Assembly: GCA_028701035.1 (NCBI GenBank)
Contig: JAQVRO010000001.1
Span: 5,497-69,496 of the forward strand
DNA length: 64,000 nucleotides
Source: Minisyncoccota bacterium
GTDB lineage: Bacteria; Patescibacteriota; Minisyncoccia; Minisyncoccales; CSSED10-335
Direction: 5' to 3'
Each line of letters starts with the position of its first letter. The stretch's first letter is position 1. Both the position numbers and the translations under genes were made by a program. Shown in pieces: positions 29,753 to 64,000 of this stretch. Under the pieces are notes generated by a model, which saw only the letters and a program-made list of their open reading frames with translations, was not told the origin of the DNA and did not search any database.

Positions 29753-29766
29753 AAAAAATAAAGATA

Positions 29767-29840: not shown

Positions 29841-29847
29841 AAACATG

Positions 29848-32103: not shown

Positions 32104-32370
32104 TTAAAGAATTGGTTTTACTTTTAAGAATCTACCCTCTTTGTTATTAAAAGAATTAATAATTAAATCTTTATCATCAAAATCAATTGCGACATCGTCT
32201 CTAAAAACACTACTCAAATCGCTTTGGAAATAATCTTGTTGTTTATGGGAAATATTGGCTTCCTTTAAATCATCTACATAATCTAAAACGATAGCGATAT
32301 CTTTTCTTAAATCTTCTTCCTCTTTTGGATCAAAGCTTATTCTTGCTAAATTAGAAAGTTTTTTAATCAT
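32104..32370 (-). CDS. gatC: glutamyl-tRNA(Gln) amidotransferase subunit C
   Basis: 88 aa, immediately upstream of gatA. N-terminus MIKKLSNLARISFDPKEEEDL is GatC-like. Confidence 0.75.
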   Translation of the reverse strand: MIKKLSNLARISFDPKEEEDLRKDIAIVLDYVDDLKEANISHKQQDYFQSDLSSVFRDDVAIDFDDKDLIINSFNNKEGRFLKVKPIL

Positions 32371-35940: not shown

Positions 35941-36948
35941 TTATTTCTTAATCATTATACTTCTCTTATAGGCATCAATGTGATCCAATACCTCGCTAGT
36001 TCCCTTGGCGACGCAAACAAGTGGATCTTCGGCAATAAAACAAGGAACTCCTGTGCTCTCAGAAATCAAAACATCTATTTCTCTTAATAGTGCTCCTCCA
36101 CCAGCAACAACCATACCTTTGTCCATAATATCAGCTGAGAGCTCGGGCGGTGTATCTCGCAAAACCTGGCGAATGGCTTTAATCATTTCGTCTAGCGTCC
36201 CCTCCATTGCCTCGGCAACCTCATTAGAGCTAACATCAATATTTCTTGGCAAACCCAAGATAAGGTCTCGCCCCCTTACATTCATAGTCATTTCTTCTTT
36301 TACTGGAACTGCGGTTCCTATCTTAATTTTAATATCCTCGGCAGTTTGAATTCCAATAGCCAACTTATACTTCTTTTTTATATACTCTACTATAGACTCA
36401 TCAAGTTTATCTCCAGCTGTTCTTAGAGAGTAATATGTTACAATACCACCTAGGGATAATACTGCCACCTCTGAAGTTCCTCCACCAATATCAACAATCA
36501 TATGACCTGAGCAAGAGTTAATTGGTATACCGGCTCCAATAGCAGCCAAAACTGGCTCTTTAGTTAGGTAAACATTTTTAGCACCAGCTAGAGTGCCTGC
36601 TTCAATTACTGCTCTCTTCTCTGTTGATGTAATGCCAGCAGGAACACCAACAACTAAATCGGGTTTGAAAAAACTCCAACGCCCCAAACTCTTCTCAATA
36701 AAATAGCGAAGCATTGCCTCGGTAATCTTATACTCGGCAATGACGCCATCTCTCAGTGGACGATATACTTTTATAGTATCAGGAGTTCGGCCAATCATTT
36801 TTTTGGCCTCAGCACCAACAGCCATAACCTTGTTTTCTAAAACAGAAACAGCCACAACAGATGGCTCGTTAATAACAACACCTTTTCCCGGCACAAAAGC
36901 TAGTGAATTACATGTTCCTAAATCTATTCCAATTTTTCTTACAAACAT
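35941..36948 (-). CDS. mreB: actin-like rod-shape protein MreB (paralog 2)
   Basis: IGIDLGTCNSLAFV and an overall MreB pattern. 335 aa. Confidence 0.8.
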   Translation of the reverse strand: MFVRKIGIDLGTCNSLAFVPGKGVVINEPSVVAVSVLENKVMAVGAEAKKMIGRTPDTIKVYRPLRDGVIAEYKITEAMLRYFIEKSLGRWSFFKPDLVVGVPAGITSTEKRAVIEAGTLAGAKNVYLTKEPVLAAIGAGIPINSCSGHMIVDIGGGTSEVAVLSLGGIVTYYSLRTAGDKLDESIVEYIKKKYKLAIGIQTAEDIKIKIGTAVPVKEEMTMNVRGRDLILGLPRNIDVSSNEVAEAMEGTLDEMIKAIRQVLRDTPPELSADIMDKGMVVAGGGALLREIDVLISESTGVPCFIAEDPLVCVAKGTSEVLDHIDAYKRSIMIKK

Positions 36949-46465: not shown

Positions 46466-47115
46466 ATAATACTATTAAACTCTGGCTTAAGAGATAATCC
46501 TCCCACCAAAAGACCATCAAAGTTAGAATAATCTAAATAATTATCTTGATTAACGCTACCACCATACAAAACCTTAGAATTAACAACTCCTTTTATTACA
46601 ACCCTCCTATTCTCGGCTATTATCGGGCTACAAGCCTTACCGCTACCAATAGCCCAAAATGGCTCATAGGCAATAATAACTTTACTTAAATCCCTGCCAA
46701 CATCCTTAATAGAATCTTTGATTTGTTTAATTAAATAACTATCATCCAGCTTGTCTTCGCCAACGCATAAAATTACATTAAGGTTGTTTTTTAGAGCAGC
46801 TTTTAGTTTAAGATTAATTGTCTTGCTATCTTCGCCAAATATACTTCTTCTTTCAAAATGACCCAAAATAACATACTTACAACCAAAACTCTTAATCATC
46901 TTTGGCGAAATCTCTCCAGTTAATGAACCGCTGTCTACCCAAGAACAATTCTGAGCTCCAAGCTTAGCATTATTTAATTTAATCTTTCCTAAAAATATAG
47001 ATGGCGGACAAACAACCAAATTAGAAACATCCCTATACCTTCTAATAATAGCTTCCGCTTGCTTTAGTGTCGGCGGATTCATCTTCCAATTAGCAACTAT
47101 TAGTTTCTTTTTCAT
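46462..47115 (-). CDS. tpiA: triosephosphate isomerase
   Basis: ANWKMN, AYEPFWAIGSGK and LYGGSV motifs. Confidence 0.8.
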   Translation of the reverse strand: MKKKLIVANWKMNPPTLKQAEAIIRRYRDVSNLVVCPPSIFLGKIKLNNAKLGAQNCSWVDSGSLTGEISPKMIKSFGCKYVILGHFERRSIFGEDSKTINLKLKAALKNNLNVILCVGEDKLDDSYLIKQIKDSIKDVGRDLSKVIIAYEPFWAIGSGKACSPIIAENRRVVIKGVVNSKVLYGGSVNQDNYLDYSNFDGLLVGGLSLKPEFNSII

Positions 47116-48245
47116 ACTTTTTGGTTTCTAAGATATTTGGCGGCTTCTTCTGGCTCAATTGTAGATATTTCTATTCCAACTCCAAGCTCAAAACCAGCCC
47201 AAATAGATGTTTTGGGTAATATTGTCCAATGCCAATGATAATATGAATGATCGGCATTGTCCGATGGAGCCGAGTGAAGATAAAAATTATAAGCTGGGTC
47301 TCCCAAGGCTTTGTATAGCTTCTTTAAAACAACGCGAAAGATATCGGCCAAGCTTTCTTTTTCTGCTTCAGTAATATTTTCGAAATGCGACAGATGTTTT
47401 TTAGGAGAAATGATTACTTGAAATGCAACCTTAGATGCGAAAGGACAAATAGCCATAAAATGTTTGTTTTGATAAACAATTCTCTCTTTCTCTTTTATCT
47501 CCCAATCATTCATTTTACAATAAATACAATCCCCATCTTTTTTATACTTCTTAGATTTAGCTAATGCTTTCTTTAGATCATAATCTATCAGCGGTATACC
47601 CGCTATTTGAGAATGAGGATGGCTCATAGATGCTCCTGCCTCAGGGCCATGATTATGGAATATGGCGACATAATTTATATTATCTTCTTTAATTAGTGCA
47701 TTATACCTATCAGCATAAACATCAATAACTTCTTTTACTTCTAGTAAGGACAACTGCCCCAAAGATTTATTATGATTCTTAGTAACAACAACCTCGTGAG
47801 CACCAACCGCATTCATTGTTTCAAAAAACTCACCTTTCTTTTTCCTATTAAGCTTACTAGAACGAACAAATGCTGGAAATTTATTAGGAATAACAACTGT
47901 GGTCCATTTTTTAATACCCTCAACCTCTTTGCCTTTATAGTATACAAGCAAGGGCTTTTCTTGAGTCTCAATATTACAGAAGAAACAGTCTTTTTTTAGT
48001 GACTTTATTTTACTATCTTTTGGCTTCTTAAAAGACTCGGGCCTTTTGGCCCTACCTGTAGCAATAACAACCCAATTGCCCGATGCTTTGTCTAGGCGTA
48101 ATTCTGATGGAAATTTATCTTCTTTCATATTTGATATTATAGCAAATGTTAGGGAAAAAACAAGAATCCGCTTAAAAGCGGATTCAAGTATTGGGCACAA
48201 ATCGTAATTATTGAATAACCTCAACCTCCTCTGCTTCTGTAGCAT
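47112..48245 (-). CDS. galactose-1-phosphate uridylyltransferase family protein (HIT superfamily). The true start may be an internal Met.
   Basis: CFFC zinc motif and the HPHSQ nucleotidyl-histidine motif (HxHxQ). Confidence 0.6.
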   Translation of the reverse strand: MLQKQRRLRLFNNYDLCPILESAFKRILVFSLTFAIISNMKEDKFPSELRLDKASGNWVVIATGRAKRPESFKKPKDSKIKSLKKDCFFCNIETQEKPLLVYYKGKEVEGIKKWTTVVIPNKFPAFVRSSKLNRKKKGEFFETMNAVGAHEVVVTKNHNKSLGQLSLLEVKEVIDVYADRYNALIKEDNINYVAIFHNHGPEAGASMSHPHSQIAGIPLIDYDLKKALAKSKKYKKDGDCIYCKMNDWEIKEKERIVYQNKHFMAICPFASKVAFQVIISPKKHLSHFENITEAEKESLADIFRVVLKKLYKALGDPAYNFYLHSAPSDNADHSYYHWHWTILPKTSIWAGFELGVGIEISTIEPEEAAKYLRNQKV

Positions 48246-48615
48246 TTGAAGTAATTTTTATTCTTGTGTTGGTTGTTGGATTGTCAAACTGAATCAAATA
48301 GCCATCATCGCCAGTTGAAGGATCTACTGGAATTCCTCCAATATGATCGCCCACTAAATCACTACTACAACTTAATACGGTTGCTGTTGAACCATCGGTT
48401 GGAATACAAGAAGGATAAACTCCTTGGTTTGATATAACATAAGAATAAACTGCGTTGGCAATACTATTCATGTTACTCCATCGTGTTGCATTTCTAGCTT
48501 GTTCAAATTGTCTACCAGGATTAATTGCAATAATAATTGCAGCTGCAAGAATTGCTATAATACCGATAACGATAAGCAACTCAATTAATGTAAAACCTTT
48601 TTTATTGTTCTTCAT
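48208..48615 (-). CDS. type IV pilin / pseudopilin
   Basis: Prepilin leader and N-methylation motif KKGFTLIELLIVIGIIAILAA. Confidence 0.7.
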   Translation of the reverse strand: MKNNKKGFTLIELLIVIGIIAILAAAIIIAINPGRQFEQARNATRWSNMNSIANAVYSYVISNQGVYPSCIPTDGSTATVLSCSSDLVGDHIGGIPVDPSTGDDGYLIQFDNPTTNTRIKITSNATEAEEVEVIQ

Positions 48616-48631: not shown

Positions 48632-48994
48632 TTAATTGCCGACCTTTATGAAATCTTGACTAACCCATACTAATAAGTCATTATCTAAAATAATTTGGGA
48701 CCATCCATCAACGCCCCCCACTAATTCGTATTCTCCAGCTTCAATTAATCCAATCTCTTCCGATTCGTAACTAGGTTCAGTATAACCATAAACTTCATCG
48801 CCCGCAATAACTACAAAGTCTTTCATATCTAATTTAGCTTGCTCTATTTGAAACATAACAACGATTCTTTGTTTTAACGGTTGCATGGAATATGGCACAG
48901 GAAAATTAACCACATACCATAGAGAAAATACAAAAAATCCAAGCCCAGCAAATGCTATCATTAATGATGTTAAATATCCCGGTAATTTATCCAT
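48632..48994 (-). CDS. hypothetical single-pass membrane protein. Its extracytoplasmic domain is paralogous to the C-terminal domain of the neighbouring PilM-like protein.
   Basis: One TM helix, then PVPxxMxPLKxR and a beta-rich domain ending in W...I.V, similar to the tail of the 48996..50858 protein. Confidence 0.35.
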   Translation of the reverse strand: MDKLPGYLTSLMIAFAGLGFFVFSLWYVVNFPVPYSMQPLKQRIVVMFQIEQAKLDMKDFVVIAGDEVYGYTEPSYESEEIGLIEAGEYELVGGVDGWSQIILDNDLLVWVSQDFIKVGN

Positions 48995-48995
48995 A

Positions 48996-50858
48996 TTATT
49001 CTATAATAGTTTCTTCTAATAATAAATCTTCCTCTGAATCTTCCCCTGACTCTTCCTCTGGCTCATTAATATTAATAACTTCTATGTGTTCTTCGTTTGC
49101 CCAGCCCTCAAAACCTGCTACCTTTAGTTTATACCAAATATCAATTTTTTGCAACAATTCTATTTCATCTTCTACCGTTGCAACATATAAAACTTCGCTC
49201 CTCTCTCCCGGCAAAGCATAGATGTTTATGCCACTTTCAATAAACTCTTCTCTTATCTTAACCAGCAACTCTTCTTTATCTTTTTCTAAATAAAACTGAG
49301 TCATTACTCTGTGTTTTAATGGAACCATTGGTGCAGGGACAGGCAAAAGCACAAGATAAAGTATTGATAACGATAAAAGAAATATACCTGATAGAGCTAC
49401 AATTAACGAAGCCATCAAAACAGATTTTTGCTTACCTTGTTGAGTTTTAATCTCTTTTGCCTTTACTTCAGATGGCAAAAGGTTTATTCCATCTCTTACT
49501 GGATCTTCTGCGCCCCCTCTCAGGGCAAGACCAATAACATTAGAATATATTACTCCTTTAGTATCATCAAGATTACTCGTATCTTTAATTTTAGTTAAAG
49601 GATTGCCAATTTCAACTTTATTCCCAAAGAACTTTTGGAAAAACAAATCAATTTCTGGCAACAGCGCCGAGCCTCCAGCTAGAATAATCCTTTTAATATC
49701 CTTCTTGAATTCTTTCTTATAAAAAGACTCTGCTTCTTTAGCTTCGTTCACTATCCTTACGGCTTCTTTTTCAATTACCGAGTAGAACTGTGTTTGGCTC
49801 TTAAAACCATCCCTTACCTTTATTTCTTCAGCTTTATCTTTAGCTATATTCAAACTATCAGCAATTTTTTGTGTAAAATTAAAACCAGCTACAGGCACAG
49901 AAACAGCGAAACATATCGCACCAGCACTATCGTATACAGATATAATAGTGCTCTTTGCTCCAATATCTAAAATCATCGTATCCTCTATCTCGTCTTTTTT
50001 AACAACTTCTTTCTTCTTTTTAAATACACTTTTCTTGTTCTTGTTTTCTTCAGCAATAGGATCGTAAACCTTTCTTAATAACCCTCGCCCAGTAGCAAAA
50101 GACTCAACATCTAGAGCAACCGGCGTAATATTGGCTGCTCTTAAAAAATAAATATAGTTATCAACAACATCTTTATCTACCGCAACACAAATTACATCTA
50201 TCTGATTCTCTTTTTCTTGATTAGTAATCTTTAAGAAGTCCCAAGATATCTTCTTTAAAGGTAAAGGTATCGTTGTTTCTATCTTCTTAGTTAGCGCGTT
50301 ATAAAAGTTTTCTTTTGCATCTATTTGAAAATGATATATGTATGTTTTGCTCTCTGGTAAGCTAATAATCGCCTTTAGCTCTTTTATCTCTTCGGCAATC
50401 AAAGGAAATGGTTTTGTTTCTTTTAGAGTTTTGTTTAAGATGCTTATTAATTCCTTTTGGTTCTTGATATCCCCATCTTCCACAATACCTTCTGGTAATA
50501 TGGCTCTACCATAAGAGACAATTTTGCCTTGCCTGTTTAACTGCATTATCTCTATTGAGTGGTCACTTACATCTATACCAACGACTGGTTGCTTAGTGAC
50601 ATCTAATAAATCACTAACAACTTGAGATTGCCTAATTTTAGCCAACTGCAACTTCCAACCTTCATTAGGTTTTTCTTTTTTAATTTCTTTGCTTTGCTTA
50701 ATAATCTCGTTTATAATCTGAGTTGGGTTGGCGCCTCTTTTCTGGGCCTGCTCTAACAAAGCTTTCTTTTCTGGATTTGATTCAATTATCTTCTTTAATA
50801 TTAAATCATCTCCGGCTCCTCTTTCTCTAGCTTTTTTAATTGTTTCTTCTATTGACAT
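48996..50858 (-). CDS. PilM-like actin-fold pilus assembly protein fused to a C-terminal TM segment and a PilN/PilO-like periplasmic domain. About 100 aa of N-terminal extension.
   Basis: VGIDVSDHSIEIMQL and later actin-like ATPase segments. TM helix LMASLIVALSGIFLLSLSILYLVLL. C-terminal domain similar to the 48632 ORF. Confidence 0.5.
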   Translation of the reverse strand: MSIEETIKKARERGAGDDLILKKIIESNPEKKALLEQAQKRGANPTQIINEIIKQSKEIKKEKPNEGWKLQLAKIRQSQVVSDLLDVTKQPVVGIDVSDHSIEIMQLNRQGKIVSYGRAILPEGIVEDGDIKNQKELISILNKTLKETKPFPLIAEEIKELKAIISLPESKTYIYHFQIDAKENFYNALTKKIETTIPLPLKKISWDFLKITNQEKENQIDVICVAVDKDVVDNYIYFLRAANITPVALDVESFATGRGLLRKVYDPIAEENKNKKSVFKKKKEVVKKDEIEDTMILDIGAKSTIISVYDSAGAICFAVSVPVAGFNFTQKIADSLNIAKDKAEEIKVRDGFKSQTQFYSVIEKEAVRIVNEAKEAESFYKKEFKKDIKRIILAGGSALLPEIDLFFQKFFGNKVEIGNPLTKIKDTSNLDDTKGVIYSNVIGLALRGGAEDPVRDGINLLPSEVKAKEIKTQQGKQKSVLMASLIVALSGIFLLSLSILYLVLLPVPAPMVPLKHRVMTQFYLEKDKEELLVKIREEFIESGINIYALPGERSEVLYVATVEDEIELLQKIDIWYKLKVAGFEGWANEEHIEVININEPEEESGEDSEEDLLLEETIIE

Positions 50859-50863
50859 TTAAT

Positions 50864-53842
50864 TTAAAATTTAAGGTCTAAGTCAGAGATATCAACTTCC
50901 TTTGGTTTTTCCTCTTTTTTAGTTTCAACTATTTTTTTGTCTTGTTGTTTATCCTCTGGCTCTTTTTGTTCTTCCTTAACTTCAATCTTTTTTTCAGCTA
51001 TAGCATCCTTTCTCTTGGCTTCTTGTTCTTCTTGGGCTCTCTTCTTAGCTTCGGCTTCTTTTTTTTGTTGCTCTATCTTTTTCAAGTAATCCTCGGCTTG
51101 TTCGTATATTGATTTAGCAGAGAAAAATCCAGCTTTCTTTTCAGGTTTGGTAGCTTTAGTTAATACTTCCTTAAATGCAGTAGCACTTTCTTCTAGCTTA
51201 TGACTATTATACATAGAAACTGCATTTTTGAAAAGACTATTAATTTCTAATTCTTTTTCTTTATCGACTTGTGGCCTCTCCTGTTGGACTTTAGCTATAA
51301 CTTCTCTTCTTTTAGATTCTTGTTCTTCTTGGGCTCTCTTCTTAGCTTCAGCTTCTTTTTTTTGTTGTTCTATCTTTTTCAAGTAATCTTCAGCTTGCTC
51401 GTATATTGATTTAGCAGAGAAAAATCCAGCTTTCTTTTCAGGCTTTGAGGCTTTAGTTAATACCTCTTTGAATGCAGTAGCACTTTCTTCTAACTTATGA
51501 CTGTTATACATAGAAACTGCATTTTTGAAAAGACTATTAATTTCTAATTCTTTATTTTTCTTTACTTCTTCTGCTTCTTTCTTTTGTTTTATCTTAAGAG
51601 CTTCTTCGGATTTTTTAAGATATTCTTCGGCTTGTTCATATAATGTTTTGGCAGAAAATAGTCCAGATTTTTTTTCGGGCTTAGGGTCTTTCTCCATTAC
51701 CTTTTTGAAACAAACTATACTTTCTTCTATCTTTTGATGATTATACAAAGATACCGCATTATTAAAAAGATTTTTAATTTCTAATTCTTTCTTTTTCTGG
51801 TCCTCCAACTCTTCTTGAGCTTTCTTCTTAGCCTCAGCCTCGGCTTTTTCTTTGGCGATTCTCTCGGCTTCAATTTTCTTCATTGCTTCTTCCCTGGCAC
51901 GCCTTTCTTCCTCTTGCCTCTTCTTAGCTTCAGCCTCAGCTCTTTGTTTATTCTCTTCTTCTTGTTTTCTCCATCTAAGTTCTTTTTCTGCCTTAATTAT
52001 ATAGTTTTCAGCTTTAAGTTTAAGAGAAATTCCTTTATCTTTAGATAAAGATACAAATATGTCTGGGTTTTGGTTGATTTTTTCTAATTTATTTAAAACA
52101 CTATTAAAGCCAACCAAGCTCTCTTCGAATTTACCTTGATCGAATAGATTAACCGAATCATCTATTATCTTGTTTAACTCTTGACGAACAAGCTCTTCTT
52201 TAGCTTTTCTTTCAAACTCATATTCAATTTCTTTTTTAGCCTCCTCTTTAGCTCTTCTTTCAATCTCCCGCCTTTCTGCATCTTGTTTTATCTTTGATAT
52301 TTGATTTTCAGCTTTTAAATATATTGGGTGATTTTTGTCTAGCTTGCTCATTAGTTGCTGAAACCCTTTCATGCAACTATCTAAGTCTCCATTTTGGTAT
52401 AGATTATTGCATCGCTCAAATTCATTAACAAGTTCTTTTTCTTTCTCTTCTTGGGCTCTTCTTGCTTCTTCCATTGATCTTTGCTCTTCTAATTCTTTTT
52501 GTTTTCTTAATTCTTCTGCCTCTTGAATACGCTTCTTCTCTTCTTCTTGCCTCTTCCACCTAATATCTTTCTCTGCTTTCAAGATGTAGTTCTCTGCTTT
52601 GAGTTTAAAAGATACTCCCGCGTCGGCTAGTGAAGTAAATTCGTTTAGCTTAGATAATACATTTTTAAAAGATACAATACTCTCTTCAAGTTTGCCTGAT
52701 TCGTAGAGAGAAATACCTTCAGCTAAAATGGAATTGAGCTCGACTCTTTGTTGTTCTTGTAGCTGGCGTTGCCTAGCTAGTTCTGCTTCCCTTTCTAGTC
52801 TTTCTTGTTCTTCTTTTTTAGCTCTTTCTTCTTGGGCTCTTCTTTCTTCTTCTTGCCTCTTCCACCTAATATCTTTCTCTGCTTTCAAGATGTAGTTCTC
52901 TGCTTTGAGTTTAAAAGACACTCCCTCGTCGGCTAGTGAAGTAAATTCGTTTAGCTTAGATAATACATTTTTAAAAGATACAATACTTTCTTCGAGTTTG
53001 CCTGATTCGTAGAGAGAAATACCTTCAGTTAAAATGGAATTAAGCTCAGCTCTTTGTTGTTCTTGTAGCTGGCGTTGCCTAGCTATTTCTGCTTCCTTTT
53101 CTAGTCTTTCTTGTTCTTCTTTTTTAGCTCTTTCTTCTTGAGCTCTTCTCGCTTCTTCTATTGCTCTTTGTTCCTCTAATTCTTTTTGTCTTCTTAATTC
53201 TTCTGCCTCTTGAGCCATTCTTCTTTCTTCTTCTTCTTTTTGTTGCTTAAGAATTCTGTGCTCTTCGTGCATCTTTTCGAGATCAATAGCACTATCAAGA
53301 TCTCTTAAGTTCTTTGTTAAAGTGTTAAGTTCTATTAAAGCCTTATCTGTTTTTTGTTTTAACTCAGCGATATTAGATTGTTCAACGCTATAATTCTCAG
53401 TTATTCTTTCAATGTTTTGAGCTCTTTTAGATATTTGACTTTCTAGTTGACCTACCTTCTCTTCTATTGCCCATCTTTTATCTTCTAGCTCTCTTCTTTT
53501 GTCTACCAATGCCCATCTTTCACGCTCAATCTTTCTCTTCTTTTCTATGTCATCAGTAGATGTTTCTTGGTTTTCAATATTCTCTTTTTCTTTATCGAGA
53601 ACTTCTTTTTCTTTTAAGATATATTCTATTTCTTTCGAAAGATTAGCTTTCTCGTCAACATCCTTAGTCATTGCTAATTCTTCAGCTTCTTTTTCCCTAA
53701 GAGCACTGTTTAGATATTCGTCTTTTACTTTTTTGAGTTCACTTAAACGCTCTGCTTCTTTTTGCAGAAGCGAAGAGTTTTGCTCAATTGATTTTTTTTG
53801 CAACTCCAACTCTTTTATTTTACTGTTGGTGATTTCTTGCAT
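50864..53842 (-). CDS. giant coiled-coil repeat protein (992 aa) with E/K/R/Q-rich heptad regions. Single TPR-like modules (SLYESGKLEESIVSFKNVL, SMYNSHKLEESATAFKEVL) are embedded between charged linkers. No signal peptide.
   Basis: ORF track. Two protein-level tandem duplications are mirrored by near-identical DNA repeats. Confidence 0.6.
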   Translation of the reverse strand: MQEITNSKIKELELQKKSIEQNSSLLQKEAERLSELKKVKDEYLNSALREKEAEELAMTKDVDEKANLSKEIEYILKEKEVLDKEKENIENQETSTDDIEKKRKIERERWALVDKRRELEDKRWAIEEKVGQLESQISKRAQNIERITENYSVEQSNIAELKQKTDKALIELNTLTKNLRDLDSAIDLEKMHEEHRILKQQKEEEERRMAQEAEELRRQKELEEQRAIEEARRAQEERAKKEEQERLEKEAEIARQRQLQEQQRAELNSILTEGISLYESGKLEESIVSFKNVLSKLNEFTSLADEGVSFKLKAENYILKAEKDIRWKRQEEERRAQEERAKKEEQERLEREAELARQRQLQEQQRVELNSILAEGISLYESGKLEESIVSFKNVLSKLNEFTSLADAGVSFKLKAENYILKAEKDIRWKRQEEEKKRIQEAEELRKQKELEEQRSMEEARRAQEEKEKELVNEFERCNNLYQNGDLDSCMKGFQQLMSKLDKNHPIYLKAENQISKIKQDAERREIERRAKEEAKKEIEYEFERKAKEELVRQELNKIIDDSVNLFDQGKFEESLVGFNSVLNKLEKINQNPDIFVSLSKDKGISLKLKAENYIIKAEKELRWRKQEEENKQRAEAEAKKRQEEERRAREEAMKKIEAERIAKEKAEAEAKKKAQEELEDQKKKELEIKNLFNNAVSLYNHQKIEESIVCFKKVMEKDPKPEKKSGLFSAKTLYEQAEEYLKKSEEALKIKQKKEAEEVKKNKELEINSLFKNAVSMYNSHKLEESATAFKEVLTKASKPEKKAGFFSAKSIYEQAEDYLKKIEQQKKEAEAKKRAQEEQESKRREVIAKVQQERPQVDKEKELEINSLFKNAVSMYNSHKLEESATAFKEVLTKATKPEKKAGFFSAKSIYEQAEDYLKKIEQQKKEAEAKKRAQEEQEAKRKDAIAEKKIEVKEEQKEPEDKQQDKKIVETKKEEKPKEVDISDLDLKF
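51005..51595. repeat. intragenic tandem duplication, 2 copies of ~296 bp, >90% identical
   Basis: Identical strings such as ttcttgttcttcttgggctctcttcttagcttc recur at 51022 and 51318. Each copy contains a T9 or T10 homopolymer. Confidence 0.7.
52480..53110. repeat. intragenic tandem duplication, 2 copies of ~308 bp, >90% identical
   Basis: tcttcttgcctcttccacctaatatctttctctgctttcaagatgtagttctctgctttgagtttaaaaga recurs at about 52545 and 52851. Confidence 0.7.
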
Positions 53843-53861
53843 GTTTATTATTTATATTTCT

Positions 53862-53889
53862 ATTATATACAATGTATATTTTTTTGCAA
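53862..53889 (-). promoter_or_regulatory. near-consensus sigma70 promoter TTGCAA-16-TATAAT driving the coiled-coil gene. Part of a ~75-bp cassette repeated at 57716..57790.
   Basis: On the minus strand, -35 at 53889..53884 and -10 at 53867..53862, with ATG at 53842. About 85% identical to the cassette upstream of the RAYT gene. Confidence 0.55.
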
Positions 53890-53913
53890 TAGTTCTTGCT
53901 GTTTAGCTTCTGA

Positions 53914-53934
53914 TTAAGGCGCTAAGCGCCTTAA
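53914..53934. repeat. REP-like palindrome TTAAGGCGCTAAGCGCCTTAA
   Basis: Perfect 10-1-10 palindrome immediately upstream of the promoter cassette. Confidence 0.65.
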
Positions 53935-54078
53935 TCTGCCATTGCCTTATTTTAAATATTTCAATATTATTTTATCACAAAAAATTAAAAAATCTAGCAC
54001 CTGATTAATTGGAGAAATAATTTATATGTTAATTCTCTGATATTAATTAATAAAATAATAAAAACGGCATCCACATAC

Positions 54079-56805: not shown

Positions 56806-56968
56806 AATACAATTTGATTAAATTCTAACAAATATAATACAATTATTAATACTTATTTAATCTCTATACTTCGCTTAATTAAGGCGCCTGGCGCCTTAAT
56901 CTAACCTCCTTAATTTATACTTCGCTTAATTAAGGCGCCTGGCGCCTTAATCTGAACTCCTTAATACT

Positions 56969-57640
56969 TTAATCCTTTTCTATTAAATATTTATCTATAT
57001 CTTTTTTATTACGGCTTTCCTCAATCACCATTTTGACAAACTTTTTATACTCCACTACCGAATTTGACCCTTGTGCTTCAGAAAAATGATCAAGAATAAT
57101 GTCTTTACTCGCAACCAAATCGTCTGGCCTTTCTCCTAAGAAATATCCATAGCTTGTCCATGGATAATCTTCAACATCAGCTATTTTATGAATTTGTGAA
57201 TTACCATTGATATAGGCAGACAGCCAAAGAAGATAATCATCATTATCAATATGAATTGCTTTGTAAGCTCCTTGGAATAATCTACCTGGGCGATTGTATT
57301 TTTTATTAATAAAATTAGTATAGCTGTGTCCTATTTTGTGTAAAAATTTAGAAATACCATCATCGGTTAATTGTTGTAATATCAAATGATAATGATTAGG
57401 TAATAAATTATAAGCATTTATTGTGACTATTTTTTCTAATCCCTCTAAGAAGGAGCTTAGCTCCTTAATATCTTTACGAGCCACAGATGCCCTTTCTTCG
57501 TAATAAGATTTATTATTAAAATCCTTTAAGCCTCTTTTAAACATTTTATAATCTTCGTCTTCTCTAAAAAGCAATGAATCAGCTACAGCTCGATTATAAA
57601 CATGATAGTATTCACCATTGGTAAATTTTATTTTTCTCAT
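56969..57640 (-). CDS. REP-associated tyrosine transposase (RAYT; IS200/IS605-like Y1 HuH transposase)
   Basis: N-terminal YHVYNRA motif, HuH motif LPNHYHLILQ, downstream conserved Tyr region RLFQGAYKAIHID. 223 aa. Flanked by REPs. Confidence 0.7.
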   Translation of the reverse strand: MRKIKFTNGEYYHVYNRAVADSLLFREDEDYKMFKRGLKDFNNKSYYEERASVARKDIKELSSFLEGLEKIVTINAYNLLPNHYHLILQQLTDDGISKFLHKIGHSYTNFINKKYNRPGRLFQGAYKAIHIDNDDYLLWLSAYINGNSQIHKIADVEDYPWTSYGYFLGERPDDLVASKDIILDHFSEAQGSNSVVEYKKFVKMVIEESRNKKDIDKYLIEKD

Positions 57641-57748
57641 ATAACTTTTTTCGTTAAGGAGCCTGGATTAAGGAGCCAGGCTCCTTAATCTAACCTCCTT
57701 AATTTGTTGCTGTTGGTTATTGCTTGCATATTTATTATTTATATCTCC

Positions 57749-57776
57749 ATTATATATAATGTGTATTCTTTTGCAA
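57749..57776 (-). promoter_or_regulatory. sigma70 promoter TTGCAA-16-TATAAT upstream of the RAYT gene (second copy of the cassette)
   Basis: On the minus strand, -35 at 57776..57771 and -10 at 57754..57749. The transcript would traverse the REP at 57706..57654 before the RAYT ATG at 57640. Confidence 0.5.
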
Positions 57777-57849
57777 GCGTTCAGTTGTTTGGTTCTTGGT
57801 TAAGGAGCCTGGGTTAAGGAGCCAGGCTCCTTAATCCGACCTCCTTAAT

Positions 57850-59547
57850 TTATTTGGTGGTCCAGGTGGGGCCGTCTCCAACAGGTAAGAGGGTTCCGTG
57901 GTTGTCGTTTCCGCTTCTGTCGTAGGCGGTTTCGCCTTGACCTTCGTTTAATGGCCAGTGGCCAACGAGGCCGTTTCTGATATCGTAGCCTTTGTAGAGT
58001 TGCTCTACTTCTTCTGCAGAGAGAGCTCGGTTGTATATACGGACATCGTCGATAAGACCGTCCCAAAAATAAATATCAATACCCCCCACTCTTAAAGGTC
58101 CTACTATATCAATACTTGTAGAATCGACCCTACTTCCTATAAAAGAATTGTCAATAAATAGATTTGCATTAGATCCATTTCTAGAAAAAAATAAATAATG
58201 CCACTCTCCATCATTGTAATTCTCAGTTGTTGTTATTCTATTCGTACCTCCCCCCATCCAATAAACCCAAACTCCGTAAGGCTCATTATTAAAATTAAAA
58301 GATATATTATTAGCACTATAACTTGATCCAAAATTTAAAGCATGCATCCTCTTATTTGATATTTCGCTTTTAAACCAGAAACCAACCGAAAGATTATTTG
58401 TCCCAAAATCCCAGGCAGAATCATTCGGAATATTCGCATAATCGTTAGTGCCGTCGAAGTTTAGGGCGATTTCGGGGGCGCCGGTGGAAACTTCTTTGGT
58501 TTCGTCTTCAGTGGATTTTAAGGAAATGTTTTTGGTGACGGGGTTTTGCCAAATGGTATATTTGCTAGAATATTCGTAGTTGTATAGGTCTTGGATTTCT
58601 TCTGCTGATAGTGCTCGGTTATAGATGCGGACATCGTCGATAAGACCTTCCCATGACTGAGTTGTACTCCCTGGAAGGACTTGCCCAAATACATCATTTT
58701 CAGTATTATCGCCTAAAGTATCCAGAGATCCTGTTTCAGTTCCAGTTAAATTGCCATTTTTATAAGCTTTATAGGTTGTGCCATTTTTTACCCATGTAAT
58801 GTGTGTCCACTCATTTTCGGAGATAGTTCCAAAGTTTCCTCCTGTCCAGATGTCAATCCAATTACTGCCGGAGCCACTATAAAAAGAAATATTCTCTCCG
58901 TATATACCGACATAAAGAACCCCTTCCTTAGAAAATACTCTGTGATGTCCTGATGAAATTGGAGTCTTTACCCATGCTCCCAAAGACACCTCTGTTAAGT
59001 TGCTAGGGATTTTTACATCTCCTAAATCAATATAATCGTTATCTCCATCAAAATCTAAAGCTTCGCCCATTTTACCATCTACCCATGTAGGCCCATTAAA
59101 CAAAGTCCCATGGTTTTCGTTGCCACTGGCGTCATAGGCAGTTGTTCCACTTCCCTCGTCGAACTTCCAGTGTCCAACAAGCCCATCGGTAATATTACTT
59201 CCAGATATACTTCCCTCTTTTGGATCAACTAAATACTTACTTAAGTAGTTTGGTTTTAAGCAATCATACAAGTCATACTCTCCTGGGCCTGTGCCGATTG
59301 CAGTAAACTTATCTTGTGGAAGTGGTCCACTAGGACAATTCCAACCTCTATCGTTTTTTACTTTCTGTTGCACAGAGAGTAATATACTATTTAAATCTGA
59401 TTCTCTTTGAGAATCTCTTTGCGCTTTGATTTTTCCTACTGGGTCTACTGCTACCACAAAGAAAACTCCAAATATTATCATAACGCCAACGACAATCAAT
59501 AGCTCTATATATGTAAACCCTTTTGTTTTGTATAAATATTCTTTCAT
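57850..59547 (-). CDS. pilin-like protein with type IV pilin N-terminus and two LamG (concanavalin-like, Laminin_G_3) domains. The 3' end appears truncated by REP insertion.
   Basis: KGFTYIELLIVVGVMIIF. Two copies of GLVGHW..EGSG..AYD.SGN.NHGTL....W.......DFDG.NDY and LIDDVRIYNRALSAEE. The gene ends ...GPTWTTK, and its TAA stop is the first triplet of the REP tail. Confidence 0.7.
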   Translation of the reverse strand: MKEYLYKTKGFTYIELLIVVGVMIIFGVFFVVAVDPVGKIKAQRDSQRESDLNSILLSVQQKVKNDRGWNCPSGPLPQDKFTAIGTGPGEYDLYDCLKPNYLSKYLVDPKEGSISGSNITDGLVGHWKFDEGSGTTAYDASGNENHGTLFNGPTWVDGKMGEALDFDGDNDYIDLGDVKIPSNLTEVSLGAWVKTPISSGHHRVFSKEGVLYVGIYGENISFYSGSGSNWIDIWTGGNFGTISENEWTHITWVKNGTTYKAYKNGNLTGTETGSLDTLGDNTENDVFGQVLPGSTTQSWEGLIDDVRIYNRALSAEEIQDLYNYEYSSKYTIWQNPVTKNISLKSTEDETKEVSTGAPEIALNFDGTNDYANIPNDSAWDFGTNNLSVGFWFKSEISNKRMHALNFGSSYSANNISFNFNNEPYGVWVYWMGGGTNRITTTENYNDGEWHYLFFSRNGSNANLFIDNSFIGSRVDSTSIDIVGPLRVGGIDIYFWDGLIDDVRIYNRALSAEEVEQLYKGYDIRNGLVGHWPLNEGQGETAYDRSGNDNHGTLLPVGDGPTWTTK

Positions 59548-59551
59548 ATTA

Positions 59552-60799
59552 TTAATATGGTTTTGTACTTTCGTATAATAACTTTACTTCGCTTGGAGAC
59601 AAAGCTCGGTTGTATATACGAACATCGTCGATTTGTCCGTTGAAATAATCGACCAGAGAAGACCCGATTAACAATGGATAATTATTATTTATATTATATG
59701 GCCCTGTGCCTGTTTTTCTGATTGTTGTTAGTGACTTAGACTCCCCATCAACATAAACATAATGATTATCCCCTTTTCTTATAGCAACAACATTGTGCCA
59801 ATTACCATCTATAATGTCATCAGTTGTATACAGACGCACTTCATTGTCTGTGTCAGCTCGAACCCACCAACTTATTTTTTTTGATTCACTATGAACTCCA
59901 CCGAATGTCACTGTACCAATATAAATACTAACAAAATTGTATGGATCTATGGACTGTCTTTTTAATACAAGGCCCGCTATCTGGTCATTATTCAGTGCTA
60001 AAAACCATAACGATATTGACAAATCACTTATATTTGGTCTTAATTCAGGAGTATCTCCAATCTCCACATAATCCCCAACTCCATCAAACTCCAGTGCTCT
60101 ATCTTCTTCAAAAAACCTATTCTCCGACCAATCTGGTGCTCCAACTAATGTTCCATGATTATCGTTTCCACTAAAGTCATAGGCTGTTAGTCCTTTACCT
60201 TCGTTAAATGTCCAGTGGCCTACAAGTCCATCTGTTAAAAGCTTATCCGAAGGCTTTGAATTCTTGGCTCTTAAAGTATAAGCAGATATGAATTGGTCTG
60301 AAAAGTCATATTCTGGATAATTCTGCGGATTATAATACGAGGCTCCAATGGTTATTTGTACCGAACCAGGATCTTTAGGAAGACCAACATTTCTAAAGGT
60401 AAGACTATCAATCACTATACTTGATGCTGTTATTTTCTCCTGAGGATAACCTGCCACCTTCATTACAATAGCTCCGTCTTCAAGCCAAAAGAGAACTGGA
60501 TCGTTTTCATTGTTTGTTCTAAGCCATAACATATTTCCTGTTCTACCAGGTAATACTATCGTATCTGCATTCCTTATCTCTGCACCAATCTTTTGCATTG
60601 CAAAACGAACATTGTATGTTACCTCTTCTACAATTTCAGAATTAGAACTAGATGATAAAACATTGACTGCAATACCACCCATAGCCAAAAGAATACCCGA
60701 AAGAAGAAATGTATAAACAAGAAACTCAATAAAAGTAAAGCCTCTCTCCCTTTTCTTATTTAAATTATATTCTTTTAGAATCATAGTATTACCTAACAA
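59552..60799 (-). CDS. pilin-like protein with LamG domain (paralog 2)
   Basis: RGFTFIEFLV prepilin motif. GLVGHWTFNEGKGLTAYDFSGNDNHGTL...FDGVGDYVEIG...IDDVRIYNRALSPSEV. Confidence 0.7.
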   Translation of the reverse strand: MLGNTMILKEYNLNKKRERGFTFIEFLVYTFLLSGILLAMGGIAVNVLSSSSNSEIVEEVTYNVRFAMQKIGAEIRNADTIVLPGRTGNMLWLRTNNENDPVLFWLEDGAIVMKVAGYPQEKITASSIVIDSLTFRNVGLPKDPGSVQITIGASYYNPQNYPEYDFSDQFISAYTLRAKNSKPSDKLLTDGLVGHWTFNEGKGLTAYDFSGNDNHGTLVGAPDWSENRFFEEDRALEFDGVGDYVEIGDTPELRPNISDLSISLWFLALNNDQIAGLVLKRQSIDPYNFVSIYIGTVTFGGVHSESKKISWWVRADTDNEVRLYTTDDIIDGNWHNVVAIRKGDNHYVYVDGESKSLTTIRKTGTGPYNINNNYPLLIGSSLVDYFNGQIDDVRIYNRALSPSEVKLLYESTKPY

Positions 60800-61892
60800 C
60801 TTCTATTCTGCCTTGACGACCAACATTAATTTTAACAGAATCGCTACCGTCACTTAGCTCAATAATATTATCATCTACACCATCAAGCCCAGATTCATAT
60901 ATCAACCTTATTTCTTCCGCTGTAAGAGCACGATTGTAGATGCGGATGTCGTCAATAGAGCCGTTAAAAAATTGAGCGTAACCAGATAACGAACCAAGAT
61001 AAAGATTGGCACTTCCCCAATTATTCATGGTTCCACTAAAGGCTATAGTAGCTACCTGCATTCCGTCTATATATAAAAATTTATTCGTTCCGTTCCAGAC
61101 CCCTACCACATTGTGCCAATTTCCATCATTATAAGTTAATGGTGAAGTTAAAGTATTTGAATTGCCCGTATCCGTTAGAGTATAAAACTTTATAATATTA
61201 TTAGTAGAATCATCAACGCCAATAGCGTAACTACTATGAGAAGTATCTAAACGACGAAAGATAAAACAGCGAGTATTTTGAGAAGTATTAAATTTTATCC
61301 ATTGCGATATTGAAACTTGTGTTGTAATTGAATCTAAGCTTGTTCCACTTCCGCAATTCACATAATCGTCTGTTCCATCGAAATCTAGCGCCCCGCCAAC
61401 CTTACCATTTGCCCATGTAGGATCGTTAACCAAAGTTCCGTGGTTCTCCTGACCACTTAAATCGTGTGCTACGCCTCCCTCCCCTTCGTTCATTGTCCAA
61501 TGACCAACCAAGCCCTCAATTTGGGGTTTACCGCTATTATCAAAAACAATCTCTGGAGCTCCAGCAATAGTTATGTCTGAATAAAGTTCAAACACTTCGT
61601 CATATAAAGGATCTCTTTCTTCATAAGAGTTACCTTTAAAAGATGTATATGTTTCTGGTGTAAAATATACTCCCCAAAGGCTATCATCTCTACCTTTCAT
61701 TGACTTTGCCTGTGTTTGTCTTAAAACACTTAATAACTGAGAAGCTTCTTCTTCAACGGATTGTTTTTTTAAAGAACCAAAGCTTATTGGTATTGTCATA
61801 GCTGACAACATTGCAATCATTGAAACAACAAGCATAAGCTCAATGAAAGTGAACCCTTTTTGTCTTTTGCTTTTTTTTATAATCCAAAACAT
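60789..61892 (-). CDS. pilin-like protein with LamG domain (paralog 3)
   Basis: KGFTFIELMLVVSMIAML. GLVGHWTMNEGEGGVAHDLSGQENHGTL...FDGTDDYVNCG...IDDIRIYNRALTAEEI. Confidence 0.7.
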   Translation of the reverse strand: MFWIIKKSKRQKGFTFIELMLVVSMIAMLSAMTIPISFGSLKKQSVEEEASQLLSVLRQTQAKSMKGRDDSLWGVYFTPETYTSFKGNSYEERDPLYDEVFELYSDITIAGAPEIVFDNSGKPQIEGLVGHWTMNEGEGGVAHDLSGQENHGTLVNDPTWANGKVGGALDFDGTDDYVNCGSGTSLDSITTQVSISQWIKFNTSQNTRCFIFRRLDTSHSSYAIGVDDSTNNIIKFYTLTDTGNSNTLTSPLTYNDGNWHNVVGVWNGTNKFLYIDGMQVATIAFSGTMNNWGSANLYLGSLSGYAQFFNGSIDDIRIYNRALTAEEIRLIYESGLDGVDDNIIELSDGSDSVKINVGRQGRIEVVR

Positions 61893-61904
61893 ATTTTAGT
61901 GATA

Positions 61905-64000
61905 TTAACGGTTAACATGATACTCTAAACCTCTTTGGTACAAAAACTTTATTTCGTCTTCTGTGAGAGCACGGTTGTAGATGCGAACATCGTCTATAAG
62001 GCCGTTAGTATAATCAACATTAGCCTGATCTCTTTTTCCGATCCATAAGTCATCATCACCAGCAACAACTGCTTTAGGTGTTCCAGAATAAGAACCATTA
62101 ATATATTGTCCATCTATATAAAGCGATAACGTAGTTCCACTCCAAGTCATCATATAATGATGCCAATTATTATCTTGTAGAACTGTATGTCTTTTGTAGT
62201 AACCATCACTCGCCATCATGTCTATCGTTCCGTTATTATGGGATGAATAATAAACCTGATAACCTTCTAATTGATCATGGTTTGCATTCTTTTTCGAAAT
62301 CATGAAACTGCTGTCTATTCCAACTGTTCCTTGAAATTTACTCCACAATGATATTGATAAATCGCTATCTAGCGCCAAACTCGCATCATTTCCCACATCC
62401 ACATAATTTCCGACTCCATCGAAGTCCAAAGATTTGTCGTGGCGGCCATCTACCCATCTAGTGTATCTTATGATAACAATGCCAGAACCACCAGAACCAC
62501 CATCTCCAATGGGAGTAGTGTCGCTATGAGCACCTCCTCCTCCTCCACCACCACCTGTATTGGACAAAGCATCTTCTCCTTTCTGTTCTTCACTACTTGA
62601 AGTGTCATATCCATCACCTCCGTCACCACCACCTCCAGATCCTCCCTCCCCAGGGTTAACTCTATCTATAGTGGCATCGTTTCCCCCAATTGCACCACCT
62701 CCACCACCTGCGAACCAACCATATTCTCCATAATTATCTCCGAAAGTATGACCAAAATAAAGACCGTCTCCACCATCTTGAGCAACTGTTCCATCTGAAG
62801 AACCTCCTGGTTCTGAAGCACCTCCACCACCTGCCGAACTACCACCAGGACCATAATAATCCCCCCCCTTATTTCCTTGATTAAGGGTTCCTGCGCCACC
62901 CTCAACAGGATGATCAACATGCCTTGCACCTCCTCCACCGGATCCTCCACTATGTGGACTATTCTCAGAGATATTGTCAATGCTTGCACCCCTTCCACCC
63001 CCTACTGCTACAAGTGTATCGAATACTGAATTTTCACCATCTTGAGGAGCAGTGTCATTGTACCCACCTGCCCCGCCGTCACCGACATTAATTGAGATAC
63101 TACTTCCTGAGACTACATTGTATGAATCATCGAAAATCAACCCTCCAGCTCCTCCGCCGCCGCCGGCAGTATGATGATAGGTGCCACCATTATTAAGTCC
63201 ACCTCCTCCGCCGCCGCCGACAACAAGAACATCTACTTCCGTTACTCCTTCTGGCACAGTCCAGGTGTGACTACCTACTGTGGTAAAAGCTTCTATACCA
63301 ACATACTTTCCTTTAGAGCCACCTCTCTTGGCTCCATAAATAGTGCCATGATTATTATTCCCAGAACTATCAACAGCTAAATCACCAAATGTTTCATCCA
63401 TATCCCAATGACCGACTAAACCATCTGTGATGTTTTCTGTTTCGTTATAAAGTTTTTGAATTTCTGTTTCTGACAAAGCTCGGTTATAAATGCGGACATC
63501 ATCAATGAGACCATCAAAAAAACTAATCCAATCGCTACCGTTATACCTGCCCCCTATAGTAAAATAATTAGCGCCTTTTTTTAAAGTAGAATCTGATATT
63601 ATAGCACTATTTACAAAAACTCCATCAACATAAATACTGGCTTCTTTGGTAGAGCTATCAAACACACCAACAAAATGAATCCAATCATTAGTTTTTGAAA
63701 TTCCAGAACTAATCTCATAATAACCAGTGCTATCTCTAACAAGAAAAATAAACTCTCCACTTTCATTTATTCTTAAATCATACTGCTCCATTGAATTCTG
63801 TGCTCTTCCAGCGATAATAGTCCATGTATTCGGAACAGTATTTGCTTTTACCCAAGACGAAATAGTAACAGATCCATCTACTTCTGTTTCTGAAGAAGCT
63901 CCCATTGTCACATAATCGTCCACTCCGTCAAAATCTAAATATGATTCTCTATCGTCCGATGCCTCGTTATAAACAGCAGTGCCTCTGCCCTCATTCATTG
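61905..64000 (-). CDS. LamG-domain protein with a long Gly-rich low-complexity region (paralog 4), 5' end off window
   Basis: The ORF is open to the window edge. Three LamG-like modules (LDFDGVDDYV..IDDVRIYNRALSETEI; GLVGHWDMDETFGDLAVDSSGNNNHGTI; LDFDGVGNYVDVG..IDDVRIYNRALTEDEI). G-rich 62450..63260 with a G8 tract. Confidence 0.6.
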   Translation of the reverse strand, partial: MNEGRGTAVYNEASDDRESYLDFDGVDDYVTMGASSETEVDGSVTISSWVKANTVPNTWTIIAGRAQNSMEQYDLRINESGEFIFLVRDSTGYYEISSGISKTNDWIHFVGVFDSSTKEASIYVDGVFVNSAIISDSTLKKGANYFTIGGRYNGSDWISFFDGLIDDVRIYNRALSETEIQKLYNETENITDGLVGHWDMDETFGDLAVDSSGNNNHGTIYGAKRGGSKGKYVGIEAFTTVGSHTWTVPEGVTEVDVLVVGGGGGGGLNNGGTYHHTAGGGGGAGGLIFDDSYNVVSGSSISINVGDGGAGGYNDTAPQDGENSVFDTLVAVGGGRGASIDNISENSPHSGGSGGGGARHVDHPVEGGAGTLNQGNKGGDYYGPGGSSAGGGGASEPGGSSDGTVAQDGGDGLYFGHTFGDNYGEYGWFAGGGGGAIGGNDATIDRVNPGEGGSGGGGDGGDGYDTSSSEEQKGEDALSNTGGGGGGGGAHSDTTPIGDGGSGGSGIVIIRYTRWVDGRHDKSLDFDGVGNYVDVGNDASLALDSDLSISLWSKFQGTVGIDSSFMISKKNANHDQLEGYQVYYSSHNNGTIDMMASDGYYKRHTVLQDNNWHHYMMTWSGTTLSLYIDGQYINGSYSGTPKAVVAGDDDLWIGKRDQANVDYTNGLIDDVRIYNRALTEDEIKFLYQRGLEYHVNR

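Follow-up and report, generated by a model that had tools for sequence, protein, structure and literature searches.

A Lineage-Restricted Protein of Helical Knots and Charged Spacers, Encoded Next to PilM-PilN in a Paceibacteria Genome and Possibly a Scaffold of the Type IV Pilus

The 64,000-nucleotide (nt) stretch of contig JAQVRO010000001.1 analyzed here (the window) carries on its minus strand, at 50864..53842, an open reading frame (ORF) of 992 codons plus stop. This ORF is a real gene for a lineage-restricted cytoplasmic protein of an ultrasmall bacterium of the Paceibacteria, within the candidate phyla radiation (CPR). The protein alternates seven small three-helix modules (knots) with highly charged helical linkers, between an N-terminal helix pair (the RW domain) and a conserved C-terminal peptide. 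Two duplications of whole linker-plus-knot units, both in frame, are real and recent, and the number of modules differs between sister lineages. The gene has its own promoter-like site and is the first of a unit with genes for a PilM-PilN fusion, a transmembrane (TM) protein with an SH3-like domain, and a pilin. From this context we infer an accessory scaffold function, the binding of pilus components, and roles for the RW domain and the C-terminal peptide. Our leading, though tentative, reading is that the protein serves the assembly platform of the type IV (competence) pilus as a multivalent cytoplasmic spacer or scaffold.

An earlier note, made from the DNA letters alone, had placed a 992-aa coiled-coil protein at exactly these coordinates without stating the strand. 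The uninterrupted ORF is there, on the minus strand, and the description was largely right except for the strand, the lengths of its poly-T tracts, and the coiled-coil reading of the linkers. The source record of the protein is the metagenome-assembled genome (MAG) Candidatus Pacebacteria PHV25_00355. The parts of the gene and its product are as follows.

50864..53842, minus strand: whole ORF, 992 amino acids (aa) plus stop; cytoplasmic all-alpha modular protein, NCBI MDD4062219.1
53288..53842, minus strand: N-terminal domain, aa 1-185; helices 2-93 and 99-183 with a 5-residue loop; heptad periodicity
53471..53566, minus strand: RW motif, aa 93-124; E93, E106, R109, W110, R116, R117, E120, and W124 invariant
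52853..53053, minus strand: module M1, aa 264-330; TPR/MIT-like three-helix knot, module model confidence (pLDDT) 88
52547..52747, minus strand: module M2, aa 366-432; recent duplicate of M1
52265..52438, minus strand: module M3, aa 469-526; short-loop variant
51959..52186, minus strand: module M4, aa 553-628; best conserved module, 84% identity to the orthologue
51602..51787, minus strand: module M5, aa 686-747; best Pfam TPR_2 stretch, aa 692-721
51362..51550, minus strand: module M6, aa 765-827
51065..51253, minus strand: module M7, aa 864-926; recent duplicate of M6
50867..50917, minus strand: C-terminal peptide, aa 976-992, KEEKPKEVDISDLDLKF; 17/17 identical in the orthologue, predicted disordered
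52532..53159: tandem duplication 1, period 306 nt (102 codons), 2 copies, 95 to 96% identity; duplicates the ER/K linker plus M1
50993..51567: tandem duplication 2, period 297 nt (99 codons), 2 copies, 90% identity

The composition of the protein includes E at 19.8%, K at 15.8%, L at 8.7%, A at 8.3%, Q at 6.8%, and R at 6.2%. The maximum Kyte-Doolittle hydropathy in a 19-residue window was 0.5; on this basis the protein is cytoplasmic, lacking both a TM helix and a signal peptide, and on the latter the earlier note was correct. The full-length AlphaFold2 (AF2) model, computed in single-sequence mode, was all helix, with a mean predicted local distance difference test score (pLDDT) of 69. A Foldseek search with this model was uninformative, returning only generic TPR proteins at a TM-score of ∼0.05. 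Searches of PADLOC, PHROGs, and NCBIfam gave no match for the protein; a match to YmfI was rejected at 20.8 bits versus a cutoff of 140. The protein is a variation on the theme of TPR scaffolds that is unusual in architecture and very narrowly distributed.

The seven modules are homologous units of ∼60 to 75 aa (alignment A1). A local hidden Markov model built from A1 found exactly seven of them in the protein, each with an independent E value of ≤3e-25. When the seven copies were supplied as the alignment, AF2 predicted three helices (residues 2-16, 20-36, and 43-66) with a pLDDT of 88 and a predicted template modeling score (pTM) of 0.74. The Pfam model TPR_2 scored 40.3 over the whole protein against a cutoff of 27 (E = 2.2e-10), with no single stretch significant alone. 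Helices A and B of the module match TPR_2 and, in a profile search of the PDB, designer PPR/TPR consensus proteins. The whole-protein score and the seven modules support what the earlier note had described as single TPR-like hairpins alternating with charged linkers. A contiguous TPR superhelix, with at least three adjacent repeats, was not found in the protein: the modules stand 29 to 77 residues apart, and each consists of one A/B hairpin and a third helix. The nearest PDB folds of the module were the TPR-like soluble domain of TM1634 and the MIT domains of VPS4, NRBF2, and MITD1 (TM-scores of 0.6 to 0.7, probability up to 1.0). For the MIT folds, the TM-scores of 0.6 to 0.66 came with E values of at least 0.18 and without a Pfam MIT match. 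Thus, the modeled module resembles TM1634 and MIT folds but is not assigned to either. Short peptides are ligands of both MIT and TPR units.

The linkers between the modules are 29 to 77 residues long, 57 to 68% charged, and 10 to 18% hydrophobic, with a net charge near zero, and they are dense in opposite-charge pairs at i/i+3 and i/i+4. Linkers L0 to L4 had no 3.5-residue hydrophobic periodicity (z < 0); linker L6 had some (z = 3.6). In the full-length AF2 model, the linkers are continuous helices that join helix C of each knot to helix A of the knot that follows. With so few hydrophobic residues and negative z values, the heptad linkers of the earlier note were not borne out: the classical heptad pattern is present in the helices of the N-terminal 185 aa only and is not found in the linkers, which form most of the protein. 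The composition fits that of ER/K single-alpha-helix (SAH) spacers, the signature of which has been described (PMC5347031, PMC10335832), rather than that of a coiled coil, and the linkers would behave as monomeric SAHs. The C-terminal tail (aa 950 to 992) was predicted to be disordered, with a pLDDT of <50.

The N-terminal domain was modeled with a pLDDT of up to 92. Relative to 1,000 shuffles, the 3.5-residue hydrophobic periodicity had a z of 2.8 in helix 2-93 and of 8.7 in helix 99-183, and the simplest reading of the pair is that the two helices would pack as an antiparallel hairpin. The domain is defined by the RW signature, E-x2-RW-x5-RR-x2-E-x3-W, which follows a short T/S-rich loop between two long helices; our alignment of it (A3) has 9 sequences from 6 proteins, and the protein described here has all 8 invariant residues. 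As read from the sequence, W110, R117, and W124 are spaced by 7 residues, and so are E106, D113, and E120, so that the residues of each set line up in a stripe along one face of the helix. An exhaustive phmmer (HMMER) search of 1.84 billion representative proteins gave 13 matches only at E ≤ 1e-3, of which ∼3 only were orthologues. Over this whole library, the RW homologues P0007, P0010, P0011, and P0014 had E values of 7.5e-6 to 8.8e-4, and in P0007, P0010, and P0014 the RW unit is repeated every 130 to 137 residues. No model in Pfam, NCBIfam, PADLOC, or PHROGs matched the domain, and a search of the PDB with the A3 profile gave only weak, generic coiled coils (such as ZapB, BAP31, and GCN4 fusions) with E values of at least 0.01. 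To judge by these sequences, the RW helical hairpin is a small, undescribed, CPR-associated domain. P0010 is a fusion protein in which two RW hairpins are combined with a TM segment and a GH3 NagZ-like domain, and genes for a DksA/TraR zinc-finger protein and a LysM-M23 peptidase lie near those for P0007 and P0010.

Both tandem duplications were found at the DNA and protein levels. Tandem Repeats Finder reported the first at 52532-53159 (period 306, 2.0 copies, 95% matches, score 1156). A repeat search aligned 52539-52838 with 52845-53144 at 96% identity for the first duplication and 50993-51270 with 51290-51567, at a spacing of 297 and 90% identity, for the second. The offsets at the protein level are 102 and 99 residues. 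Because both periods are divisible by 3, whole protein units were duplicated. An older third copy of the 297-nt unit, at 51527-51804, retains 60% identity. The earlier note had reported two tandem repeats, and these stand; its periods (∼296 and ∼308 bp) and its boundaries (51005..51595 and 52480..53110) were only approximately right. The T9 and T10 tracts that it placed in the repeats are in fact T8 runs, at 51059-51066 and 51356-51363, and two further T8 runs are at 51668-51675 and 53792-53799. On the coding strand these runs are AAA-AAA Lys-Lys codons (QQKKEA) in a protein with 16% Lys. The four T8 runs in this 3-kb gene compare with 13 A/T runs of at least 8 nt in the whole 64-kb window.

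The closest orthologue, P0002 (674 aa), is 91% identical to the protein described here (P0001) and colinear with its aa 319 to 992, with no indels. P0003 is a 208-aa fragment with 51% identity and an identical C-terminal peptide. A metagenome scan found an 830-aa orthologue on a contig of a sister species (L001; Ga0255347_1005829), and scans of genome contigs with PilMN and with the C-terminal alignment found no relatives. In word-indexed homology searches, which were saturated by low-complexity words, the full protein retrieved itself and P0002 only, the RW profile P0014 only, and the module profile nothing. Two candidates were discarded: P0016, a 51-aa member of the cluster of P0003, which led to an unrelated contig (L012), and P0006, a generic kinase-TPR protein.

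The orthologue in L001 has five modules and no large tandem repeat; it lacks the duplicates M2 and M7, and the 297-nt unit that carries two T8 runs has no counterpart in it. P0002 has six modules and, at its shortened N terminus, the end of a seventh, and it shares the M6/M7 duplication. The difference between seven modules and five agrees with the recent expansion and copy-number variation that the earlier note had foreseen, here between lineages. That note had also named an assembly artifact as the outcome that would overturn its repeats; the C-terminal duplication is also present, colinear and free of indels, in the independently assembled P0002, and because the duplications are seen in two assemblies we count them as real. 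A comparison of P0001 with P0002 revealed no variant in tract length. Within each genome, M6 matches M7 at three positions (S/N, T/I, and I/V) at which P0001 and P0002 differ, and the variant unit ends (KRRE and KRKD) have traded places from one genome to the other, a pattern to be expected if the copies had undergone gene conversion or unequal crossing-over. The gene call of P0002 starts at the equivalent of residue 319, within the first tandem repeat (MKAEKDIRW versus LKAEKDIRW in P0001), which might reflect a true truncation, a frameshift, or a fault in assembling the repeat.

Identity to the L001 orthologue is 72% in the N-terminal domain, 84% in M4, and 100% in the last 17 residues, versus ∼50 to 60%, with indels, in the linkers and 31 to 48% in the segments flanking the C-terminal peptide. 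The corresponding values for the neighbors are 75% for PilMN and 73% for the pilin. The structured parts and the C-terminal peptide are conserved at about the level of PilMN and the pilin and, therefore, are under purifying selection at about that level. The gene order ComM-YraN-DprA-(orthologue)-PilMN-120 aa-pilin-GalT-TIM-AlaRS is kept in L001, where neighboring proteins are 70 to 94% identical to those of the target genome, and a further contig, L005, repeats the downstream part of this synteny.

The earlier note had set the gene in a pilus/competence neighborhood, and pilus, ComM, and DprA genes do lie around it. The elements next to the gene are as follows.

53914..53934, between dprA and the promoter-like site: repetitive extragenic palindrome (REP)-like palindrome, TTAAGGCGCTTAGCGCCTTAA
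53862..53889, minus strand: promoter-like site TTGCAA-16-TATAAT, 20 nt 5' of the ATG; 10/12 consensus matches, the best in the region
48996..50858, minus strand: gene for a PilM-PilN fusion, 620 aa; 5-nt gap after the 992-aa gene
48632..48994, minus strand: gene for a TM plus SH3-like protein, 120 aa, in the PilO position
48208..48615, minus strand: gene for a type IV pilin, 135 aa, N_methyl / GFxxxE
48164..48185, minus strand: terminator-like hairpin plus T-run just 3' of the pilin stop; the four-gene unit likely ends here

Upstream on the same strand are genes for LamG-domain pseudopilins, a RAYT-like Y1 transposase, ComM/YifB, YraN, and DprA. The intergenic region between the DprA gene and the 992-aa gene (236 nt) contains the REP-like palindrome and the promoter-like site, the latter of which is kept in L001. 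No terminator-like site was found between the 992-aa gene and the hairpin at 48185..48164. The promoter-like site, the 5-nt gap, and the hairpin therefore delimit a unit of four genes (the 992-aa gene, pilMN, TM/SH3, and pilin), which, from these signals, appear to be co-transcribed with the 992-aa gene first. The PilM-PilN fusion consists of PilM (aa 94-447; TIGR01175, 134 versus a cutoff of 133), a PilN-like INLLP motif, a TM segment, and an extracytoplasmic C-terminal SH3-like domain. Its 90-aa N-terminal extension has two similar RGA-containing helical motifs. No pilB, pilT, or pilC gene was identified in the window, the rest of which holds housekeeping genes. The longest galT ORF (47112-48245, minus strand, 377 aa) probably starts 39 codons early, as its orthologue aligns from residue 40; the hairpin at 48164-48185 overlaps this ORF only in the 39-codon 5' extension that is absent from the orthologue.

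The earlier note had derived expression of the gene from a REP-associated promoter cassette. The sequence of such a cassette (palindrome, TTGCAA-16-TATAAT, leader, and first ∼8 codons) does occur twice in the window, at 53800-53945 (minus strand) and at 57700-57845 (minus strand), the codons reading ATGCAAG.AAT.ACCAACAG. The second copy is 89% identical over 46 nt and lies upstream of the gene for the RAYT-like transposase (ATG at 57640), with more REP palindromes flanking it; apparently, a promoter, a gene start, and REP elements were copied together. The palindrome recurs at 30022-30133 and 56879-56950 (0 expected by chance). The clusters at these sites and at 57660-57840 have the form TTAAGG[A/C]GC...GC[G/T]CCTTAA, often after TTAAGGAGG. 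They adjoin the RAYT-like Y1 transposase gene (56969-57640; NCBIfam REP_Tyr_transpos, 31.5 bits, below the cutoff of 80) and also two putative tRNA genes at ∼29700-29850, read from the sequence only. Farther upstream, at 57850-63998 (minus strand), are genes for four large proteins in a row with Laminin_G_3/ConA-like lectin domains; two of the four have prepilin N-methylation motifs, making them giant minor pilins or pseudopilins, and one also has Gly_rich_2. Elsewhere in the window, two full-length MreB paralogues (32370-33437 and 35941-36948, minus strand; Pfam MreB_Mbl, E ∼ 1e-133 each) lie <4 kb apart and flank genes for RseP-like, RRF, and HolB-like proteins.

If the protein is a scaffold of the pilus platform, its parts could work as follows. 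The RW helix pair would probably be an oligomerization or anchoring domain, because the domain is also used by other CPR proteins. The seven TPR/MIT-like knots are candidate peptide-binding sites, which the ER/K single-helix spacers of 29 to 77 residues would separate, and the acidic, strictly conserved C-terminal peptide is a candidate docking motif. So built, the scaffold would hold and position its partners at set distances from the platform. Unequal recombination would have given rise to the two in-frame duplications of spacer and knot, raising the number of modules from 5 to 7, and this gain would have changed the length of the rod and its valency.

Several points weigh against a pilus scaffold. 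The genes galT, tpiA, and alaS follow on the same strand, and CPR genomes pack unrelated genes tightly. The synteny is known from close relatives alone, which is weak evidence of functional coupling. Published type IV pilus loci of Saccharibacteria list no such component (PMC12206443). The RW proteins P0007, P0010, and P0011 are encoded directly downstream of pnp (polynucleotide phosphorylase) at all three loci that could be inspected, which are not pilus contexts, and look-alike TPR plus ER/K proteins of other bacteria are periplasmic or extracytoplasmic and belong to unrelated operons. As to structure, the assignment of the linkers to the SAH type is based on composition, and the Foldseek E values for the module, at least 0.16, are not significant.

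L002 8001-9434; L003 8001-10460; L004 3593-6052; L006 1547-2005: RW-protein loci beside pnp
L007 2405-5431; L010 9001-12048; L009 7001-9256; L008 7001-10045: loci of look-alike proteins

The look-alikes have signal peptides (P0004, P0005, P0008, P0009/P0019, and P0012) and resemble the 992-aa protein in size (750 to 1015 aa) and in alternating one TPR-like unit with an ER/K linker. Their phmmer E values of 1e-8 to 6e-4 are weak but significant over the whole library, and the similarity may be partly compositional. They differ in being extracytoplasmic and in having neither the RW domain nor the C-terminal peptide. P0004 is fused to a Wza-like Poly_export/SLBB domain, and P0012 is encoded ∼5 kb from a gene for an MshE-type ATPase. 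The genes for P0009/P0019 follow those for a TpsB/ShlB-type transporter and a transglutaminase-core protein and are convergent with a DprA-ComM-YraN-RAYT cluster. We rejected that cluster as a link to competence; its presence is probably coincidental, as the genes are convergent and the look-alike is in its own TpsB-transglutaminase operon.

Among known pilus organizers, the polar hub proteins FimV/HubP of Pseudomonas and Vibrio carry a long cytoplasmic region in which TPR-type motifs are dispersed; large and highly charged, they organize type IV pilus components (PMC12918733). The 992-aa protein is like them in size, high charge, dispersed TPR-type motifs, and a putative genomic or functional tie to pili. 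However, a periplasmic LysM domain, a TM segment, and a FimV TPR domain at the C terminus characterize FimV/HubP, and the 992-aa protein lacks all three: we found no match to LysM or FimV families in Pfam or NCBIfam, no TM segment by hydropathy (maximum, 0.5), and no sequence match by phmmer. By analogy, the likeness is functional at most and does not amount to family membership. In Myxococcus xanthus, the cytoplasmic proteins SgmX (TPR) and FrzS (coiled coil) serve to recruit the type IV pilus machine or to activate it (PMC7519303, PMC9811614, PMC7668184). Like the 992-aa protein, these are cytoplasmic TPR and long-helix proteins, and phmmer detected no homology to either. SgmX is an effector of MglA with contiguous TPR arrays, whereas the 992-aa protein has isolated knots on ER/K spacers; FrzS carries a receiver domain, whereas the 992-aa gene has no GTPase or receiver partner nearby. 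Likewise, canonical TPR proteins form a superhelix from at least three adjacent repeats, in contrast to the lone units, 29 to 77 residues apart, found here. The predicted spacers share with the SAHs of myosin-6/10 and the CAF-1 KER (PMC5347031, PMC10335832) ∼60% E/K/R, few hydrophobic residues, opposite charges at i/i+4, and a semirigid helical nature. Those cases are mostly eukaryotic and have a single spacer, whereas this protein alternates 8 spacers with knots.

We considered whether the protein might instead be a general cytoskeletal or cell-organizing scaffold (for division, shape, the nucleoid, or the envelope) that is not specific to pili, its adjacency to pilMN merely reflecting gene packing in a reduced genome. 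The occurrence of the RW domain in CPR proteins of the pnp/DksA/LysM-M23 neighborhood, one of them fused to a TM segment and a cell-wall enzyme (GH3, NagZ-like), is in favor of this, as are the unrelated housekeeping genes that follow on the same strand and a synteny documented in close relatives only. But the promoter-like site before the gene and the terminator-like hairpin after the pilin gene set these four genes apart, just 5 nt separate the gene from pilMN, and the conserved parts of the protein evolve at about the rate of PilMN, the TM-SH3 protein, and the pilin. We give this alternative a modest chance. A classical two-stranded coiled-coil filament former, with the charged segments as its heptad coiled coils, is unlikely: the significant periodicity of the N-terminal 185 aa, that of L6 (z = 3.6), and the weak matches of the A3 profile to ZapB, BAP31, and GCN4 fusions (E of at least 0.01) are as expected of one, but L0 to L4 have the low hydrophobic content and negative z values given above, near-zero net charge with dense i/i+4 opposite-charge pairs is the ER/K signature, and the three-helix knots break the helices every ∼100 residues.

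The repeats and runs raise the question of a contingency gene, whose expression or length would switch at high frequency within a population as poly-A/T tracts slip or the 300-nt repeats recombine. The concentration of T8 runs in the gene (4 in 3 kb versus 13 A/T runs of at least 8 in 64 kb), two ∼300-nt repeats at 90 to 96% identity, and the mosaic or concerted patterns of the copies in two genomes would suit such a gene. Against it, the tracts are only 8 nt long and are plain Lys-Lys codons in a Lys-rich protein, the unit with two T8 runs has no counterpart in the L001 orthologue, the two closest assemblies have the same copy number, and between P0001 and P0002 we found T8 tracts with no length variant. 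We regard phase variation as quite improbable. Least probable of all is that a repeat was expanded or collapsed in assembling a short-read MAG. The sequence does come from a MAG, and the P0002 gene call begins inside the first repeat region, where there is possibly an assembly or frame problem; however, the 306-nt copies differ at 13 positions and the 297-nt copies at ∼10% with the frame kept, P0002 has the M6/M7 duplication and the end of the seventh module on a separate 165-kb contig, and the older, diverged third copy shows an earlier duplication of the 297-nt unit. An assembly artifact is thus very unlikely, although further copies may have been collapsed.

A more specific and more doubtful version of the pilus scaffold is a "knotted ruler," an undescribed class of cytoplasmic accessory protein of CPR type IV/competence pili. 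It would reach up to ∼90 to 100 nm (an estimate from 388 linker residues × 0.15 nm plus the knots and the hairpin), with knots spaced by ER/K helices, the RW domain as anchor, and the C-terminal peptide for docking, and its length and valency would be tuned over evolution by in-frame duplication of spacer and knot. The C-terminal peptide might possibly dock onto the protein's own knots and so form a network.

The practical value of these results is modest, the protein being confined to a narrow Paceibacteria lineage with no experimental access yet. The RW hairpin, which is conserved and has no Pfam or NCBIfam model, merits definition as a family. If the reading of the linkers is true, this would be a naturally occurring bacterial protein that uses ER/K single-helix spacers several times over. 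In CPR/Patescibacteria, type IV pili play a central part in episymbiosis and DNA uptake, yet only the genes of the core machine are annotated. If the pilus reading is true, a cytoplasmic rod encoded with PilM-PilN would be a candidate organizer of pilus assembly in cells a few hundred nanometers wide.

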